A DNA stretch of 56,116 nt, taken from Elusimicrobiota bacterium (GTDB taxonomy: Bacteria; Elusimicrobiota; Elusimicrobia; Elusimicrobiales; UBA9959). The stretch spans positions 1 through 56,116 of the forward strand of contig DAIENX010000076.1 in assembly GCA_027340875.1 (NCBI GenBank). The letters run 5' to 3'. The position numbers were made by a program. Positions 27,001 to 33,000 of the stretch are shown piece by piece; positions within the stretch are counted from its first letter, which is position 1; each line of letters starts with the position of its first letter.

Positions 27001-30000
27001 CGCTGGAAGGGCTCTACGAGACCCGCAGCGCGCTGGTGGACGGAACCGACGATCCGCGCGACCTGCGCGGCCTGCTCACCTATACCAAAGCCGACGGCGA
27101 TGTCCTGAGCGCCGGACTTCTGCTGGGGCTTTCGGAGGGGAGTCCGTCAGTCGGCCTTTCCTTCGGTTTCAGTCGCAGGCTCTGAGCCCTTTCTGCAGGA
27201 CCGATCATCCCGAAAATAAAAAAAGCCCGGCCTGAGCCGGGCGCCGCTGCGGGCGCGTCAGAACGCCATGGCCAGGCTGAGCTTCCTGGTGGTGTCGAAA
27301 TCCCCGAACGGGCTGAAGGAATAGTCCAGCCTCATCGACCCCGCGCTGAAACCTATGCCGCCGGACATCGCGCCCTGCGAACCGGAGGCCGCGGCCGCGT
27401 AGCCGCCGCGCAGCGCCAGGCCGCCGACGAGCGAGTATTCGGTCCCGATCGAGAAGGTGTTGCGGCGCTCGTTGACCATGCGGGTGAACTCCGCAGCCAG
27501 GTTCATCGTGGGGAGCACCGCCAGCGCGGCGCCGGCGCTCATCGAAAGGGGCAGCGCCTCGCGCTTCTCGGCGTACTTGAAGCCGCTGCCGAGGTTCCTC
27601 ACCGCGAGGCCCAGCTTCAGCGGGGAGGAGGCCGGCTTGTGGACCGCTCCGAGGTCGAAGGCCACCGCGGAGGCGCCGTAGCCGGCTATGTCGCTGGAAA
27701 GGAACTTGACCGACGCGCCCAGGCTGAAGCCGCCGGAGGTGCCGGCCAGGCCCAGTCCCAGGGCCTTATCGGCGGCGGAGAAGCCGCCAGAGCTGCCGCC
27801 GTCGGCGTTCCTGCCGTCCAGGCTGCCGTGGTCGAGACGCGTGAACGAGACGCCTGCTTTCAGGCCGGCTACGGGGAAGGCCGCGGCCGCGAAATCGTAT
27901 GAGCCGCCGAGGGCCCAGGCGGCGTGCGTGAGCGAGGCTCCGCGGGCCGACAGGGCCAGACCGCCGGGGTTGTAGTACATGGCCGCGGGGTCCGCCGCCA
28001 TCGCGGTGTACGCGGAGCCCATGGCGGAGGCCCGCGAGGCCGCGCCGATGTTCAGGAAGTCCGCGCCGCTCTCCAGGGCGTGCAGCAGGCTGGCGGAGGG
28101 GATGAGCAGGAAGGCCGCCGCCAGCAGCAGGGCGTAAGGCCTCGACAGCCAGTAGATAATGCTGTTGAGGACGTCCTTCTTGGTTCCCGAGTCCAGACAG
28201 TTCATAGCGCTACCGGATGACGGCGAACTTGCCGGCTTTCCTTATCTTCTTCGCGCCGCCGTCGACCTCGGCGGAATAATAATAGACCCCGCTCGGCAGG
28301 CCCGAGCCAAGCGGCAGATCGTAACACTGCGCAGCGCCGCAGGCCGCCGGACCTCCGGAGACCGAGCTTTCATGCTCAAGCCGGCCGGAGGCGGTGTAGA
28401 CGCGGACGGAAGCCTTGCTGCCGCCGTTAACGGTCAGATGCAGCCTCGGCGACTGGCCAGGCAGGGCGGGGTTGGGGAAAGCGTAAACCTCGGAGACGGC
28501 GAACGCTTCCGGCAGGGCCGGAGGCGCTGGTATTGCCGGGATCCCGGGAGTAGGGGGCGCCGTAGTGGTGCTGACAGTTACTGGATCCGCGGCCGGGGCG
28601 GTGACGGTGTCTGCGACTACGGGGATCGCGGCCGGGGCGGTGACGGTGTCTACGACTACGGGGATCGCGGCCGGGGCGGTAATGGTGTCGATCGCCACTG
28701 GGGCCGCGATAGGCGGGGTAACGGTGGTCGTGTCGGCAGGCAACGGCGCCGCGGCGATGACCTGGTAAACCGAGAAATGCGCCACGTCGGCGCTTACCGT
28801 TCTGTCGGCTCTGGAGACGGCCGAGGGCAATATCTCCCATTCGCCAGTGGCGTCGTTCCAGTAGGCCACCTGCAGAGCGCTCTCGTCGACGCCTGCCGGC
28901 AGGGAAGCGGGGTCGTAGGGCAGAGATATCGTGACCGGCTTGTCGAAGACCATTCCGTGCGGGCCGAACTCGAAAGGCGCCGAAGCGGCCTCGAGACCGC
29001 GGGAGCCCATGCTCTTGCCGCGCCTGTCCTTCTCGCCCTGGGTCAGCCCCTCCTGGTCTTCCGGCGCAGCGGCCAGCAGCAGGTCCGGGTTACCCTTGAA
29101 CGCGCCCTTGGGTATGTTCACCTTTACCCCGCCCTGTCCCGTGCGCAGGCCGGCGCCGTTCTCCTGCGGGACGACGGGGGTTTTGGCGGTCTTGAGCGCT
29201 CTGTTCATGCTCTCGCCGCGGAAAGCCCGGCCGTCCGCGAGGAGGCCCTCTATCCCTATAGAGAAATCCCCCTCGGGGATAAGGTTGGCCACGGCCTGCC
29301 TGCTGAACTTTATCATCAGGTAGGTGATGCCCTGGAGACCGGTGAACTCCGTGCTGTCGCCGGTGTAGAGCTTGGCGGTCCACTTCGGATCGGGCGGTAT
29401 CGGCGCCACGGACTGCCCGTTGAGCGAGGTGATCTTCACGCTGGACGGGTCTACGGAGGCCGCGTCCGCCTCCGGCAGGCCCATGATCACGGTCACCCAC
29501 TTGCCGTTGGCCTTCTTGTTTATAACGTCGGGCGTCATCTGTACGAAGGCCCTGAGGTCCGTCTTGAGTTTGGAAAAATAAATATCGGGTATCGGATTGT
29601 CGATATACGAGGTGCCGCCGCCTATGGAGTACAGATAGTCGCCGTTTGAGACCGCGGCCAGCGAGAGCAGCCCCTTGGGCAGGGTGTTCAACGCCACCCA
29701 GGAGCCCAGGGTACCGTCCTGCGCGAAGGGCGCGAAGTAGACGGCGTTGGAGATCGCTCCGTCGAAGCCGCCGAGCATGTAGACGCTCTTGTCGCTGATC
29801 GCCATGCCGTAGAAGGCCACGGAGTCCGGCAGGGAAGGCTGCAGCTGCCAGTCCCCGAGCGTGCCGTCCGCGTTGGCTGCGGCCGAGTAGACCGCGCCCG
29901 ACAGGCCGGTGGCGCCGCCGCCGGCGGAGTAGAGCGAGGACCCGGTTGAGCCGCCCAGCACGAAGAGGCGGCCGCCGCGGGCGAAGGAAGTGTGGCCGAA

Positions 30001-33000
30001 CAGCGAGACCGGCAGCGGCTTCTCCGCGCGCCAGGCGCCGAGGGTGCCGTCGGGGTTCACCGCCGCCGACCAGGTCTTGCCGGTGGCGCCGGAATTAGCC
30101 GAGATGCCGCCGACGATATAGAGGCGGTCGTTGAGCACCGCCGCGGCAAGGGCGTAGATCCTCTCCGGCAGGTAGGTCCCGCGCTGCCAGCCGGCAAGCG
30201 TGCCGTCCGCGTTGGTGCCGGAGAAGTAGACGGTGTTGCGCGAGCCGTAGCGGTTGGTCCCGCCGATCACGTAGAGCCTGCCGTTATAGACCGCGGCCGC
30301 GTGCATGCCGAGGCCGAGGAACTCCGGCATAGGGCTGGCCGCCTGCCAGGGGCCCAGCTGCCCGTCGGGGAGTATCTGAGCGCAATAGTAGACGTTGTTG
30401 AGGTAGTTAGGCGCAGAGTCGCTGCTGATGCCGCCGGCCACGTAGACGCGGCCGTCCAGCGTCACGGCGGTGTGGGAGAGAAGGGAGCGGGGGAGGGGCA
30501 TCGTGGGCTGGAACTGCGCGAAGGCCGCGGACGACAGTATCGCCGACGCCGCCGCTAGTGCCAGTCTGGTGTAATTCCTGCCCATATATCCCCGGGTGCA
30601 ATAAAAAAAGCCGAATACGGAAGTCGCGCTTCAACTTCTGTGTTCGGCAGCCTGGCCGGCAAATAGACCCAACTTCCACTTTCGGCAGCCCGTCCGGCTA
30701 AGACACTGGGTCTTTTTAGCCCCGCGGCTTTGCGCCCCCGGCCTTTCGTCCCGGGTTTGCTATTATCGTTTCTATGTTATAGCAGACGCCCCGGCGATTT
30801 TCAAGGGTGCGACTTTGTATATCATGATACATCTGCCGGGGAGCCAGGCCATCTTTTTTCTATAATTCCGGTATATGGGAGACGGGTCCGGACTGAAAGA
30901 CAAAATCTGGCTCTCGGCCGGGGTTCTGGCCGCGGTCGGGGCAGTGGCCATGCCGGTTCTCAACCCGGACCTGTATTGGCATCTCTCGGCCGGGAAGTAC
31001 CTAACCGCCAACCTGGGGCTGCCCTCTTCCGACTTCCTGTCCTGGACCGAATACGGGACCGGGTGGACGGATTTCGAGTGGCTGGCGCAACTGCTGTACT
31101 ACGCGGGGTATTCGCTGGCCGGCATAAGCGGGCTTTTCGTCCTGAAGATGCTGCTGCTCTCCGCGGTCTTCCCGGCCTTCTATCTTTTCCTGGCGGATGC
31201 AGGCCTTTCCTGGCTGGCCTTCTTCGCGCTGCCGCTCTGGGGCCTGGTCGTCATGCCCAACTCCGACCTGCGGCCGGAGAACTTCAGCGTGCTCTTCTTC
31301 GCCATGCTGCTGCTGCGGCTGGAGCGGGCCCGCGTTTCCGGCCGCCCCTGGCCCTCCTCTCCGGCCGGCTTCATCGGCCTGGCGCTGTTCTTCGCGCTAT
31401 GGGCCAACCTGCACGCCGGCTTCGCCTACGGCCTGCTGCTGCTGGCCTCTTATTCCGCCGGGGCCTGGGCGGATTCGCGGTTATGGCCTTCCGGTCCCTC
31501 CGCCGGCGGTACCGCCGCCGGGGCCGGCGCGGCGGCCGCGTTCATCGGGTCGACCCTGAACCCTTGGGGCTTCGGCCTCTACGGCATACTTTACCGGCAC
31601 GCCGCCGACTCGGCCGCGCTTTCCAGATACCTGTCCGAATGGGCCCCGCCGTCGTTGTCGAACCCCTGGCACTGGCCGTTCATGGCGCTGCTGGCGGCCT
31701 CGCTGCTGCTCCTTCTCCGGCGTTTCCTTAAGGAACGGTCGCTGCCGCTGGCGCAGCTGCTGTGCCTGGGCTGGCTGGCCTTAGAGGCCTCCCGCCATAC
31801 CAGGCAGATAGTCTTCTTCGGACTGGCCGCGGTAGTCTTCTCGCTGGACTCGGCGGTAAAGCTTTGGGAACCCGGCCTGCTGGCCAGGCGCGGGAAGGTC
31901 TTGCTGGTGCTGTGCCTGGCCTATCTCGCGCTGCTGGTCTGGCCGCGTTACCTGTCCTTCCGGAGCAGCATAGGGGCCGAGGCTTCGGGCGCCGCGGCCT
32001 ATCTGAAGTCCGAGGCGTCCGTGCTGGGCGGCAGGCGGCTGTACAATCCGTGGACCTGGGGCGGCTACCTCGGCTGGGCGCTGGCTCCTGAGTACAGGGT
32101 CTTCACCGACGGCAGGTATCTCTTCCACAAGTACCTGGTGCCGGTCAGCGAGGCTATGAGGGACCAGGACGCATGGGACAGGTTCGCGGCGGAAAAGGGC
32201 TTCGATATCGTGATCTTCCGGCGCGACTACTCCATGCTCCCTTATATGCAGAGGGCCGGGAAGGCTTCCGTGACGGTACGTCGGCCGTCCTACCTGATCT
32301 TCATGCCGGAGAATAAATGGGCGCTGCTCTACTGGGACGCTTTCTCGGTGGTATTCGGCCGCCGCGGCAGGCCGCTGCCGCCGGAGTTCCGCTTCCTGCG
32401 GCCCGACGACGAGGAGAGCCTGAAGCTCGCGCTCTGCTCGGGGACGCTGAAGGCCGACGCCGTAAGCGGGGAGCTGGCGCGCTACTACGCGGCCGCCGCC
32501 GGCGCGCACTCGACGCGCGAGGCCGACCTGTTCAGGCTCTGGCTGGCCGGCTATCCCGGCGCCTGCGCTACGTTGAATCGGGGCCAATAATATAATATCG
32601 TTTGTAATGTGAAAGTCTACAGGCCCAGCGCCCTGACGAAGGCCGCAGTGCCGGCCGCCATCCTGCTGGGGGCCGGACTGTCCCTCTGGGAGTGGCCTTC
32701 CCATTTCCTCTGGATCTATCCGCTCTGCGGCTTCCTTTTCATGTGGTTCTCCTGGACCGGCGAGAAGGAGGTGAAGTACATCTTCCTGTTCCTGGTCACC
32801 GCGGCCGGCCTCACGCTGCCCAAGTTAGCCGGGCGCGTCGGGGACCCGCTGGAGCTCTACGCGGCCGCCATAGGGGAGACCCTCTGCGTCTGGCTGCTCT
32901 TCTTCGCGCTCTCGCTGGCCGAGAAGTCCAGCAGGTCCGCGGGAGAGCAGCTGGCCGAAGAGGAGGCTTCGGCCGAGGGCAGGATACGCGCGCTGGAGGA

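Follow-up and report, generated by a model that had tools for sequence, protein, structure and literature searches.

A candidate c-di-GMP-gated cassette for surface display by a type-IX-secretion-like system in Elusimicrobiota

Gene order at the Kelch-barrel locus

The window analysed here, the whole of a 56,116-nucleotide stretch of DNA from an Elusimicrobiota bacterium (contig DAIENX010000076.1, assembly GCA_027340875.1), carries at positions 27258-30771, on the minus strand, a c-di-GMP-I aptamer, a terminator-like leader hairpin, the gene for a 791-aa Kelch cargo protein and, after a gap of 4 nt, the gene for a 315-aa barrel, followed by an operon terminator. A first-pass annotation had placed a riboswitch ahead of a Kelch cargo and its barrel, and this layout was confirmed, the coordinates and the RF01051 score being reproduced. 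The features are as follows:

30681..30771, minus strand: c-di-GMP-I (GEMM-I) riboswitch aptamer (RF01051 at 54.8 bits, the gathering score being 35, over the full model 1-87)
30632..30701, minus strand: imperfect 32-nt direct repeat, 25/32 identical (read from the sequence)
30603..30648, minus strand: leader hairpin, 15-nt arms with 2 mismatches, then seven U (MFE fold)
28210..30585, minus strand: cargo gene, 791 aa, encoding a Sec signal peptide, Kelch beta-propeller, ZU5/MAIN-like domain, Pro/Thr-rich linker and C-terminal domain (CTD) (translation and Pfam)
28756..29193, minus strand: ZU5/MAIN-like beta-sandwich, cargo residues 465-610 (Pfam ZU5, profile match, Foldseek)
28771-28779, minus strand: H-F-S at the end of the ZU5/MAIN-like domain, cargo residues 603-605
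28213..28497, minus strand: CTD, cargo residues 697-791, T9SS type-A-like and PorZ-tail-like (TIGR04183, NF052228)
27258..28205, minus strand: PorV/PorQ-family outer-membrane barrel, 315 aa (NF033709)
27225..27242, minus strand: operon terminator, 7-bp GC stem and T run, 16 nt past the barrel stop codon (terminator scan)

A PorV/PorQ-family barrel and a PorZ-like CTD

The barrel scored 128.9 bits against NF033709 (cut-off 90), with PorQ as the second-best family (96.2 bits, under the cut-off of 220) and no PorP family among its NCBIfam matches at E <= 0.01. Its AF2 model (pLDDT 83.1, pTM 0.78) includes a predicted N-terminal helical segment, and Foldseek retrieved 8gl6_F and 6h3i_F as the best matches (TM 0.70-0.72), followed by the FadL/TodX and TbuX transporters. 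The barrel is a member of the PorV/PorQ family with a FadL-type fold. The CTD of the Kelch cargo reached 21.7 bits against TIGR04183, under the cut-off of 23, and 21.5 bits against the model of the PorZ C-terminus (NF052228), and it aligns with 12 paralogous CTDs. All 13 CTDs found in such modules match the last ~90 residues of PorZ in NF052228, with scores of up to 69.8 bits, and this is the top match for seven of them; with their near-invariant C-terminal Lys they are also type-A-like, as that class is described in PMC10994853.

The transporters that come next after PorV among the structural neighbours could point to an uptake device, in which substrates would pass through the FadL-type barrel and the CTD protein would be its surface-exposed, ligand-capturing lid or partner, SusC/SusD-like, and the passengers across the modules are indeed rich in binding modules (Kelch, fn3, Ig-like). 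We consider this very unlikely, as the best sequence and fold matches are to PorV/PorQ and not to transporters, the partner always has a secretion-type CTD, the cargos vary greatly and are very large, reaching about 3284 aa, and a SprA-like protein co-occurs across the class.

A domain with H-F-S ahead of the CTD

The propeller of the cargo belongs to Pfam families PF24681 (58.1 bits) and Kelch_1 (52.9 bits). Residues 465-610 scored 22.2 bits against Pfam ZU5 (cut-off 21) and gave a profile match to the ZO-1 ZU5 domain 2kxr (E 0.0087), and when a model of this domain (pLDDT 68.7, a modest confidence) was submitted to Foldseek, ankyrin ZU5 chains took all of the top nine places, with E values from 1.4e-3 to 2.8e-2. 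An H-[FL]-S domain lies just before the linker and CTD in nine of the 13 cargos, H and S being invariant in these nine paralogues. As described for the MAIN (microbial GAIN)/ZU5-superfamily autoproteolytic domains (preprint 10.64898/2026.05.12.724683; PMC3482391), H-F-S falls in the last beta-turn of a ZU5-like beta-sandwich that sits between adhesion domains and what would be the surface anchor; in MAIN proteins the H-F-S domain stands directly ahead of the cell-surface anchor (section 8 of the preprint). The anchors described there are, however, sortase signals, cell-wall-binding domains or SLH domains, whereas here a CTD and an outer-membrane barrel would take their place, and the text of the preprint does not mention T9SS.

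Recurrence and co-inheritance of the modules

Eighteen genes in the genome reach the NF033709 cut-off; 13 of them follow an ORF on the same strand that ends in the shared CTD, and five do not. The gaps between cargo and barrel genes run from -7 to +73 nt, exactly as first annotated, although our count of 13 pairs (12 large cargos, whose open frames span 744-3284 aa, and a further one of 224 aa) exceeds the twelve given before. The shared CTD itself was upheld, with 22 ORFs found by an HMM built here rather than 24, about five of the 22 having no nearby barrel. PorV-family matches occur in all 61 genomes of the class, at 8-27 per genome except in the small-genome family f2 (1-3). The upstream CTD ORF was present in 25 of the 29 loci fetched from 29 other class genomes, in agreement with the conservation already noted in relatives, and in four of eight loci taken from three f2 genomes, which are reduced and have only 3-4 matches apiece at E <= 0.001.

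Nearest neighbours in CTD and barrel comparisons were concordant in 10 of the 13 own pairs (1.09 on average and at most 8 in 20000 permutations) and in 20 of 34 pairs when relatives were included (mean 1.0, maximum 8 in 5000; r 0.62), as against about one expected. Because CTD and barrel subtypes thus co-diversify, the two-gene modules are inherited as units, as had been proposed, with whole-module duplication explaining part of the concordance, since the passengers too are related in three of the five pairs that are reciprocal nearest neighbours. Those three pairs would suit a gene neighbourhood devoid of physical partnership, its pairing owed to co-regulation or duplication history alone, but we hold this to be very unlikely: order, strand and short gaps are retained across class and phylum with unrelated passengers, and the predicted docking of CTD and barrel is far above controls.

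This docking was predicted for a partner from a different module. The barrel with the CTD of another module gave an ipSAE of 0.81, with 0.80-0.83 over the runs and 0.00 for the best of 3 controls, the runs sharing at least 90% of contacts with a partner pLDDT of at least 86; among solved complexes 116 of 157 reach the docking mark used, as do 2 of 215 mismatched pairs. As a similar complex has already been solved (8GL6), we take the foreign-CTD docking as likeness only. The first-pass annotation treated each barrel as private to its cargo and gave a cognate docking prediction, but this specificity was not supported: a foreign CTD is predicted to dock almost as well, so the earlier result reflects family likeness.

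Translocon components and the role of the barrel

The genome encodes a single SprA-like protein (1784 aa; TIGR04189 135.4 bits, under the curated cut-off of 200), whose nearest Atlas clusters carry SprA_N. Such a protein is encoded by 57 of the 61 class genomes, among them all 44 of good quality, and the gene is retained even in 1.4-1.7 Mb genomes with few modules. Peptidase_C25 (PorU-type sortase) exceeded its cut-off in 0/61 genomes, the PorU model matching solely through its CTD part; GldL was not found in the 61 genomes, nor was GldM found. As control genomes gave no positive control in these searches, divergent GldL, GldM and C25 homologues may have escaped detection, and the CTD could be taken off by a different protease.

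With no GldL, GldM or PorU found, and with a one-barrel-per-cargo order that resembles TpsA/TpsB logic, each barrel might be thought to translocate its neighbour itself, in the manner of two-partner secretion and without the SprA-like protein. Such a self-contained exporter is very unlikely in our view, since a FadL-type barrel of about 270 residues would be too narrow for folded Kelch propellers, and since the SprA-like gene is kept in small genomes with few modules.

We lean towards reading the locus as a two-gene cassette, gated by c-di-GMP, that displays its cargo on the surface as part of a type-IX-secretion-like system, the barrel being a one-per-cargo carrier and anchor. The cargo would cross the outer membrane via the single SprA-like protein, and its CTD would stay in place, given that no PorU-type sortase was found, bound to a co-expressed barrel made in step with it, by analogy with PorQ holding PorZ and SprF holding SprB. 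The H-F-S domain may then self-cleave, as MAIN domains do, shedding the Kelch ectodomain and leaving the CTD stub in the barrel.

Alternatively, the barrel may be a private but transient shuttle that collects its own cargo at the translocon and then hands it on or releases it, the CTD being cut by another protease. This is the role the first-pass annotation gave it, and it agrees with a barrel of the PorV/PorQ family that folds like PorV, with the type-A-like CTD and its near-invariant C-terminal Lys (PMC10994853), and with the use of PorV as a shuttle by Bacteroidota type-A cargo, as described in PMC12618676. A re-used carrier need not, however, be encoded once per cargo or translationally coupled to it. 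Moreover, the CTDs resemble most the tail of PorZ, which is not cleaved, no C25 sortase or GldL was found, and an anchor is what normally comes after a domain in the position of the H-F-S domain; on these grounds we regard a shuttle as unlikely and a stoichiometric anchor as the better description.

Comparison with Bacteroidota systems

In Porphyromonas gingivalis, porZ and porQ are not known to be adjacent, and the one PorZ-PorQ pair per cell serves the sortase machinery. Here, by contrast, there are 13 pairs per genome, each presumably co-transcribed and with adhesin-like passengers, and no PorU, GldL or GldM was found. The likeness is to the PorZ-PorQ and PorU-PorV sub-complexes of the P. 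gingivalis attachment complex, in which a CTD-bearing surface protein is described as retaining its tail and being held by a PorV/PorQ-family barrel (PMC5562754; PMC10947112), PorZ being held on the surface by PorQ (PMC5562754). The earlier statement that linked cognate pairs set these bacteria apart from Bacteroidota overlooked PorZ-PorQ (PMC5562754) as well as the PorP/SprF carriers of type-B CTD cargo (SprB-SprF; PG1035-PorP), whose genes are linked to those of their cargo according to PMC12618676 and PMC9143113; paralogous pairs can be many, F. johnsoniae having 10 PorP-like proteins (PMC9143113). Unlike in type-B systems, the barrel here is PorV/PorQ and the CTD type-A/PorZ-like, and Bacteroidota type-A CTDs are said to all use the one PorV (PMC12618676). 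The barrel resembles PorV on the SprA translocon (PDB 6H3I, 8GL6; PMC10994853) in its best structural matches, the predicted docking of a CTD and the presence of a SprA-like protein, but Bacteroidota PorV is described as a single, shared protein that the GldLM motor chain drives from the translocon (PMC10994853), whereas the barrels here are multiplied and GldL was not found. We found no report of a type-IX-secretion-like arrangement in this phylum.

The riboswitch and its leader

c-di-GMP-I riboswitches (RF01051) occur upstream of adhesin, pilus and motility genes. The present locus conforms in that an aptamer above the gathering score is followed by a terminator-like hairpin and a surface-protein operon, and differs in that the regulated unit is a T9SS-like pair of cargo and barrel. 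The aptamer is retained in a 94%-identical relative (L049; RF01051 53.9 bits). The leader hairpin, which a simple terminator scan did not list and the MFE fold did, is a probable intrinsic terminator and expression platform, and the MFE fold contains it irrespective of the state of the aptamer. Copy 1 of the direct repeat (30701-30670) comprises the aptamer 3' strand and tail, while copy 2 (30663-30632) extends into the 5' arm of the hairpin, an arrangement that suggests strand exchange between the two copies. Through this terminator c-di-GMP would set the expression of the cassette, up or down.

Among relatives, 23 of 60 RF01051 riboswitches directly head a unit that includes a PorV-family barrel; in many cases this is a PorV-TPR gene, with FliG-fusion and MotAB genes behind it. 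We found no printed description of c-di-GMP-I riboswitches heading PorV-family genes in this class. The scores of all three riboswitches first annotated in the genome were confirmed, but the genes behind the other two, listed as secreted-protein genes, had been imprecisely described. On contig C99 only 32 codons follow the riboswitch before the contig end, and the ORF is probably a PorV-TPR barrel gene. On C109 the first gene encodes a 285-aa HEAT-repeat protein, and the 2101-aa gene and an open frame running off the contig come only after it.

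A riboswitch-led cassette of cargo and barrel genes

The arrangement reported at 27258-30771 by the first-pass annotation was confirmed. On the reverse strand, a c-di-GMP-I aptamer is followed by a leader hairpin, a cargo gene, a 4-nt gap, a barrel gene and a terminator.

Features of the cassette and its leader
30771-30681, reverse strand: c-di-GMP-I aptamer (RF01051, 54.8 bits; gathering score 35; model positions 1-87, i.e. the whole model)
30632-30701, reverse strand: imperfect 32-nt direct repeat, 25/32 identical
30648-30603, reverse strand: imperfect, terminator-like leader hairpin with 15-nt arms and U7 (MFE fold)
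30585-28210, reverse strand: cargo ORF, 791 aa (translation)
28756-29193, reverse strand: H-F-S-ending beta-sandwich, ZU5/MAIN-like, residues 465-610 of the cargo
28498-28755, reverse strand: Pro/Thr-rich linker between the H-F-S domain and the C-terminal domain (CTD)
between 28210 and 28205, reverse strand: cargo-barrel gap, 4 nt
28205-27258, reverse strand: barrel ORF, 315 aa (NF033709)
27242-27225, reverse strand: GC-rich terminator (terminator scan)

Through the direct repeat, the 3' strand of the aptamer and its tail form a near-copy of the 5' arm of the leader hairpin, an arrangement that, judged from sequence, would permit strand exchange between the aptamer tail and the hairpin arm; by an eye count, pairing of the hairpin's 3' arm is slightly better with the tail than with the 5' arm of the hairpin. 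The hairpin is present in the MFE fold whether or not the aptamer folds, and no clear ON/OFF logic emerges from the competing pairings seen by eye, which include a CCCGGG stretch near the start codon. All three RF01051 matches of the genome were re-found, and a 94%-identical relative (locus L049) retains the riboswitch of this cassette. The window also holds a tmRNA gene (133.4 bits; 23522-23873, forward strand) and a tRNA gene (53153-53224, forward strand), both unrelated to the cassette.

The cargo tail resembles PorZ and the barrel belongs to the PorV/PorQ family

The cargo starts with a Sec-type signal peptide (read from the translation), carries Kelch repeats (Pfam PF24681, 58.1 bits; Kelch_1, 52.9 bits) and ends in a CTD of ~95 residues of the kind known from type IX secretion (T9SS). 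With the type-A model TIGR04183 this CTD, at 21.7 bits, falls short of the curated cut-off (23), which is reached by eight of the 13 CTDs found in modules of the same genome (23.7-32.7 bits). All 13 match the last ~90 residues of PorZ (NF052228, up to 69.8 bits), this being the top match for seven of them, and a C-terminal Lys is invariant in their alignment. Their Pfam matches are FlgD_ig, Por_Secre_tail and, weakly, CHU_C (25.8 bits or less; cut-off 27); no type-B CTD model is among the matches of the 13.

The barrel reaches 128.9 bits with NF033709 (cut-off 90, model positions 2-326) and lies below the equivalog cut-offs of both PorQ (96.2 against 220) and PorV (50.3 against 250), while PorP/SprF is missing from its NCBIfam matches at E <= 0.01. 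An AlphaFold2 model based on an alignment of 13 paralogues (pLDDT 83.1, pTM 0.78) gave 8gl6_F (E 1.5e-12, TM 0.70) and 6h3i_F (E 6.6e-11, TM 0.72) as top Foldseek matches, followed by FadL, TodX and TbuX; the modelled fold is that of a FadL-type outer-membrane beta-barrel, as in solved PorV. We take chain F of 8GL6 and 6H3I to be PorV of T9SS translocon complexes, which fits the target length.

Cargo-barrel modules recur in the genome and across the class

Eighteen genes of the genome (2.8-Mb assembly in 112 contigs, 92% complete) reach the NF033709 cut-off, and 13 of them are preceded on the same strand, at a gap of -7 to +73 nt, by an ORF ending in the shared CTD, which bears out the recurrent modules already proposed. 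The open frames of twelve large ORFs among them span 744-3284 aa, with three truncated at contig ends, and the thirteenth has a frame of 224 aa; Kelch, fn3, CarboxypepD_reg and Ig-like domains give the passengers an adhesin-like character. No upstream CTD ORF was found at the other five NF033709 genes (C111, C63b, C44, C103 and C98, C-numbers denoting contigs of this genome). An HMM built from the 13 CTDs retrieved 22 ORFs of the genome. Variants of the arrangement comprise a mini-CTD ORF before a barrel-TPR gene (C76), a mini-CTD ORF after the barrel (C44) and a four-gene form (C63, locus L044) in which genes for a CARDB-like and, next, a FecR-domain protein separate that of a 1238-aa CTD protein from that of a PorV-family barrel. 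The module barrel of C52 (locus L033, 2622-4154) bears a C-terminal extension of ~170 aa that is beta-rich in appearance and not TPR; TPR-type extensions occur on the barrels of C111 and C76.

PorV-family matches were found in all 60 other genomes of the class, as 8-27 pieces each and as 1-3 in a family of small genomes (1.4-1.7 Mb); in a sample of the phylum, 60 of 61 genomes had them. Among the 29 best loci, each from a different genome, 25 have a CTD ORF that ends shortly ahead of the barrel on its strand; in the small-genome family, a CTD ORF is present at four of eight loci from three genomes. A single-barrel query for related loci returned only four, and a 28%-identical barrel lies on a contig titled 'Elusimicrobia bacterium'. 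At loci L051 and L052, a weakly matching CTD ORF (E 6e-4 and 4e-3) lies ahead of a 29%-identical barrel; the title of one of these contigs is 'uncultured Hyphomicrobiales bacterium', which may reflect a binning or naming error or a module beyond the phylum.

Modules are inherited as units, and predicted binding is not exclusive

When ranked by local-alignment similarity, the nearest neighbours of CTD and barrel agree in 10 of the 13 modules of the genome, against a permutation mean of 1.09 and a maximum of 8 in 20000 (Mantel p 0.002). With relatives added, agreement was seen in 20 of 34 pairs (permutation mean 1.0, maximum 8 in 5000; r 0.62), these being the 13 own pairs and those of relatives, with 22 of 41 scanned loci accepted by the script and the 94%-identical relative left out. 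Only the concordance of nearest neighbours and similarities based on scores reached significance; p-distances taken from multiple alignments did not in a Mantel test (r 0.20, p 0.07). Related passengers occur in three of the five reciprocal own pairs. Together, the concordance and the shared history of kin modules indicate that modules are inherited and duplicated as units; exclusive binding does not follow from it.

The barrel of the studied cassette is predicted to dock the non-cognate CTD of the C11 module with an ipSAE of 0.81 (runs 0.80, 0.83 and 0.81; best of three controls 0.00), the runs sharing at least 90% of contacts at a partner pLDDT of at least 86. Of 157 solved complexes, 116 attain the mark applied to such dockings, as do 2 of 215 mismatched pairs. 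Predicted contacts on the CTD lie on its conserved motifs (residues 12-17, 41-48, 71-75 and 88-95 of 95); on the barrel side, the predicted interface comprises residues 124-137, 171-178 and 209-217. As a PorV-CTD complex has been solved (8GL6), the pass may stem from likeness or memory. Compared with the ipSAE of 0.90 obtained earlier for the cognate pair, the non-cognate value suggests that the prediction does not separate own from foreign CTDs. The earlier view of cognate two-gene modules is supported in part, namely for their inheritance as units.

The barrels may serve as stable anchors for cargo with a candidate release point

A barrel of this family could act as a PorV-like transient carrier or could hold the CTD of its cargo stably. 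We favour a stable anchor, because the CTD resembles the tail of PorZ and the barrel resembles PorQ, because a CTD-removing sortase was not found, because abutting or overlapping genes would fit production in step, and because nine of 13 cargos (at loci L033-L035 and L037-L041 besides the window) carry an invariant H-[FL]-S domain directly ahead of the linker and CTD. According to PMC5562754 and PMC10947112, PorQ serves as the anchor of PorZ, and PorV as that of PorU.

The H-F-S domain of the studied cargo scores 22.2 bits with Pfam ZU5 (threshold 21). Its profile gave a weak match to ZO-1 ZU5 among PDB sequences (E 0.0087), and the top nine Foldseek matches of its model (pLDDT 68.7) are ankyrin ZU5 chains (E 1.4e-3 to 2.8e-2), with GAIN domains ranking below them. 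Designed armadillo repeats, which topped the profile search against PDB sequences, were discarded as they match via a short low-complexity stretch. In the linker that follows the domain, a 13-residue unit rich in Pro, Thr and Val (...TAPAAIPVV.DTV...) occurs about three times in tandem.

According to a 2026 preprint (10.64898/2026.05.12.724683), MAIN domains of bacteria cut the H-F-S motif between its F and S, and nearly all MAIN proteins comprise, in this order, a signal peptide, adhesion or enzyme domains, the MAIN domain and a cell-surface anchor; its main text mentions neither T9SS nor a MAIN domain combined with a T9SS-type tail. ZU5 autopeptidases were known earlier from bacterial surface proteins (PMC3482391). 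By analogy, the CTD would fill the anchor slot of a MAIN-type architecture in these cargos, and their H-[FL]-S domain, placed before a T9SS-type tail, may be where they cut themselves and are shed. Were the barrels to act as anchors, the modules would offer a modular way of mounting any protein on the outer membrane; the position of the H-F-S domain before the CTD hints at an inbuilt site of release.

c-di-GMP riboswitches recurrently lead PorV-family genes

RF01051 riboswitches occur in 43 of the 61 genomes of the class and in none of the eight of the small-genome family. For the best-scoring 60 matches outside the genome under study, 13 kb downstream were examined each (ten loci being shorter than 4 kb because of contig ends). 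On the riboswitch strand, the gene immediately after the riboswitch belongs to the PorV family in 18 cases (frames of ~530-590 aa), and in five it is a CTD ORF succeeded by a barrel; two further riboswitches have a pair of CTD ORF and barrel >5.9 kb away. In the long riboswitch-led barrels, a PorV_fam match (98-116 bits) is joined to TPR repeats at the C-terminus. There are no Kelch orthologues of the studied cargo among the riboswitch-led cargos of relatives; therefore the link between riboswitch and PorV family is recurrent, and the locus is not one conserved orthologous unit beyond the 94%-identical relative. This link would offer a direct, testable route from a sessility signal to surface display.

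Both other riboswitches of the genome had been placed before genes for large secreted proteins; they are real, but the first gene after the one on C109 encodes a 285-aa HEAT-repeat protein, and the ORF after the one on C99 is probably a PorV-TPR barrel. At C99:1-230 (reverse strand), 32 codons specifying a signal peptide and the start of a PorV domain follow the riboswitch before the contig ends, and C30 opens with the last 283 residues of a PorV-TPR orthologue (E 1e-130). We infer that C99 and C30 join, the riboswitch probably leading a split PorV-TPR gene.

The operon on C30
C30 (locus L121) 1-8497, reverse strand: operon region, with the partial PorV-TPR barrel gene
C30 5442-7382, reverse strand: FliG_M/FliG_C-TPR fusion, 646 aa
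C30 2542-4983, reverse strand: 813-aa protein without Pfam matches
C30 1431-2216, reverse strand: MotA
C30 648-1427, reverse strand: MotB

A comparable operon is present in three of four tested relatives, with the full set in the same order at L096 and L118 and the FliG fusion at L070; the PorV-TPR/FliG/MotAB arrangement is absent from the fourth, L066. Also on C99, a CTD-ending ORF (489-2756, reverse strand; its 756-aa frame truncated at the contig end) terminates ~260 nt before the riboswitch, which there sits between a cargo gene and the probable barrel gene. On C109 (locus L123, 9260-10336, reverse strand), the HEAT-repeat gene precedes genes for two giant Ig-like proteins, one of 2101 aa and one truncated at the contig end; the CTD HMM matched neither of the two.

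Relation to known type IX secretion systems

Type IX secretion is described as a system of the Bacteroidota (FCB group) whose type-A cargo all uses one PorV in common. In the searchable literature, which leaves out most subscription journals, we found no report linking Elusimicrobiota to type IX secretion or PorV, and the co-occurrence of the terms in the accessible text of PMC7031533 and PMC12204202 is incidental; judged by title, the other papers in which they co-occur deal with different subjects. As described in PMC12618676 and PMC9143113, genes for type-B CTD cargo are linked to their own PorP/SprF-like carrier barrels; type-A CTDs are all recognised by PorV according to the first of these. 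In contrast to the type-B system, the modules studied here, in another phylum, combine a barrel of the PorV/PorQ family with a type-A/PorZ-like CTD, motor and sortase were not found, and riboswitch control is probable. The finding is a variant of known cargo-specific T9SS carriers or anchors and is not unique to the window.

Beyond the barrels, the genome encodes an SprA/Sov-like protein of 1784 aa.

C14:47517-52874 (locus L001 5515-10869), reverse strand: SprA-like gene (TIGR04189)

The protein scores 135.4 bits with TIGR04189 in three stretches (curated cut-off 200) and has no Pfam match; SprA_N is found in 12-20% of the members of its nearest Atlas clusters. Similar frames of ~1800 aa occur in 57 of 61 genomes of the class and in 44 of 44 good-quality ones, the small-genome family included. 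Further components were 'not found', which is distinct from 'absent'. GldL was detected in 0/61 class genomes, with no positive control in 14 control genomes, so that divergent forms are possible; the same lack of a positive control in the 14 applies to GldM, not found in the 92%-complete genome under study (0/1), and to Peptidase_C25 (PF01364), over its cut-off in 0/61 genomes. PorK/GldK gave only a 44-bit match in the studied genome, to the generic C-terminal part of the model (cut-off 350), and PorU (NF033707) was matched solely at model positions ~955-1095, its CTD part; the 14 control genomes gave no positive control for these two either.

A speculative and rather unlikely reading of these data is that Elusimicrobiota possess a pared-down or ancestral relative of the T9SS, with one SprA-like pore, no GldLM, PorKN or PorU, and a private PorQ-like barrel per type-A-like cargo, all under c-di-GMP; riboswitches would gate the cassettes and the PorV-TPR/FliG-TPR/MotAB operon, and a flagellar-type rotor-stator, rather than GldLM, would drive or position the barrels. 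The presence, in a phylum other than Bacteroidota, of an SprA-like protein, type-A/PorZ-like tails and a PorV/PorQ family multiplied one-to-one with cargo bears on how the T9SS carriers PorV, PorQ and PorP diverged. Flanking the SprA-like gene, on its strand, are ORFs of 288, 369, 432 and 401 aa; none of them matches Pfam or NCBIfam, and they may be unrecognised accessory parts.
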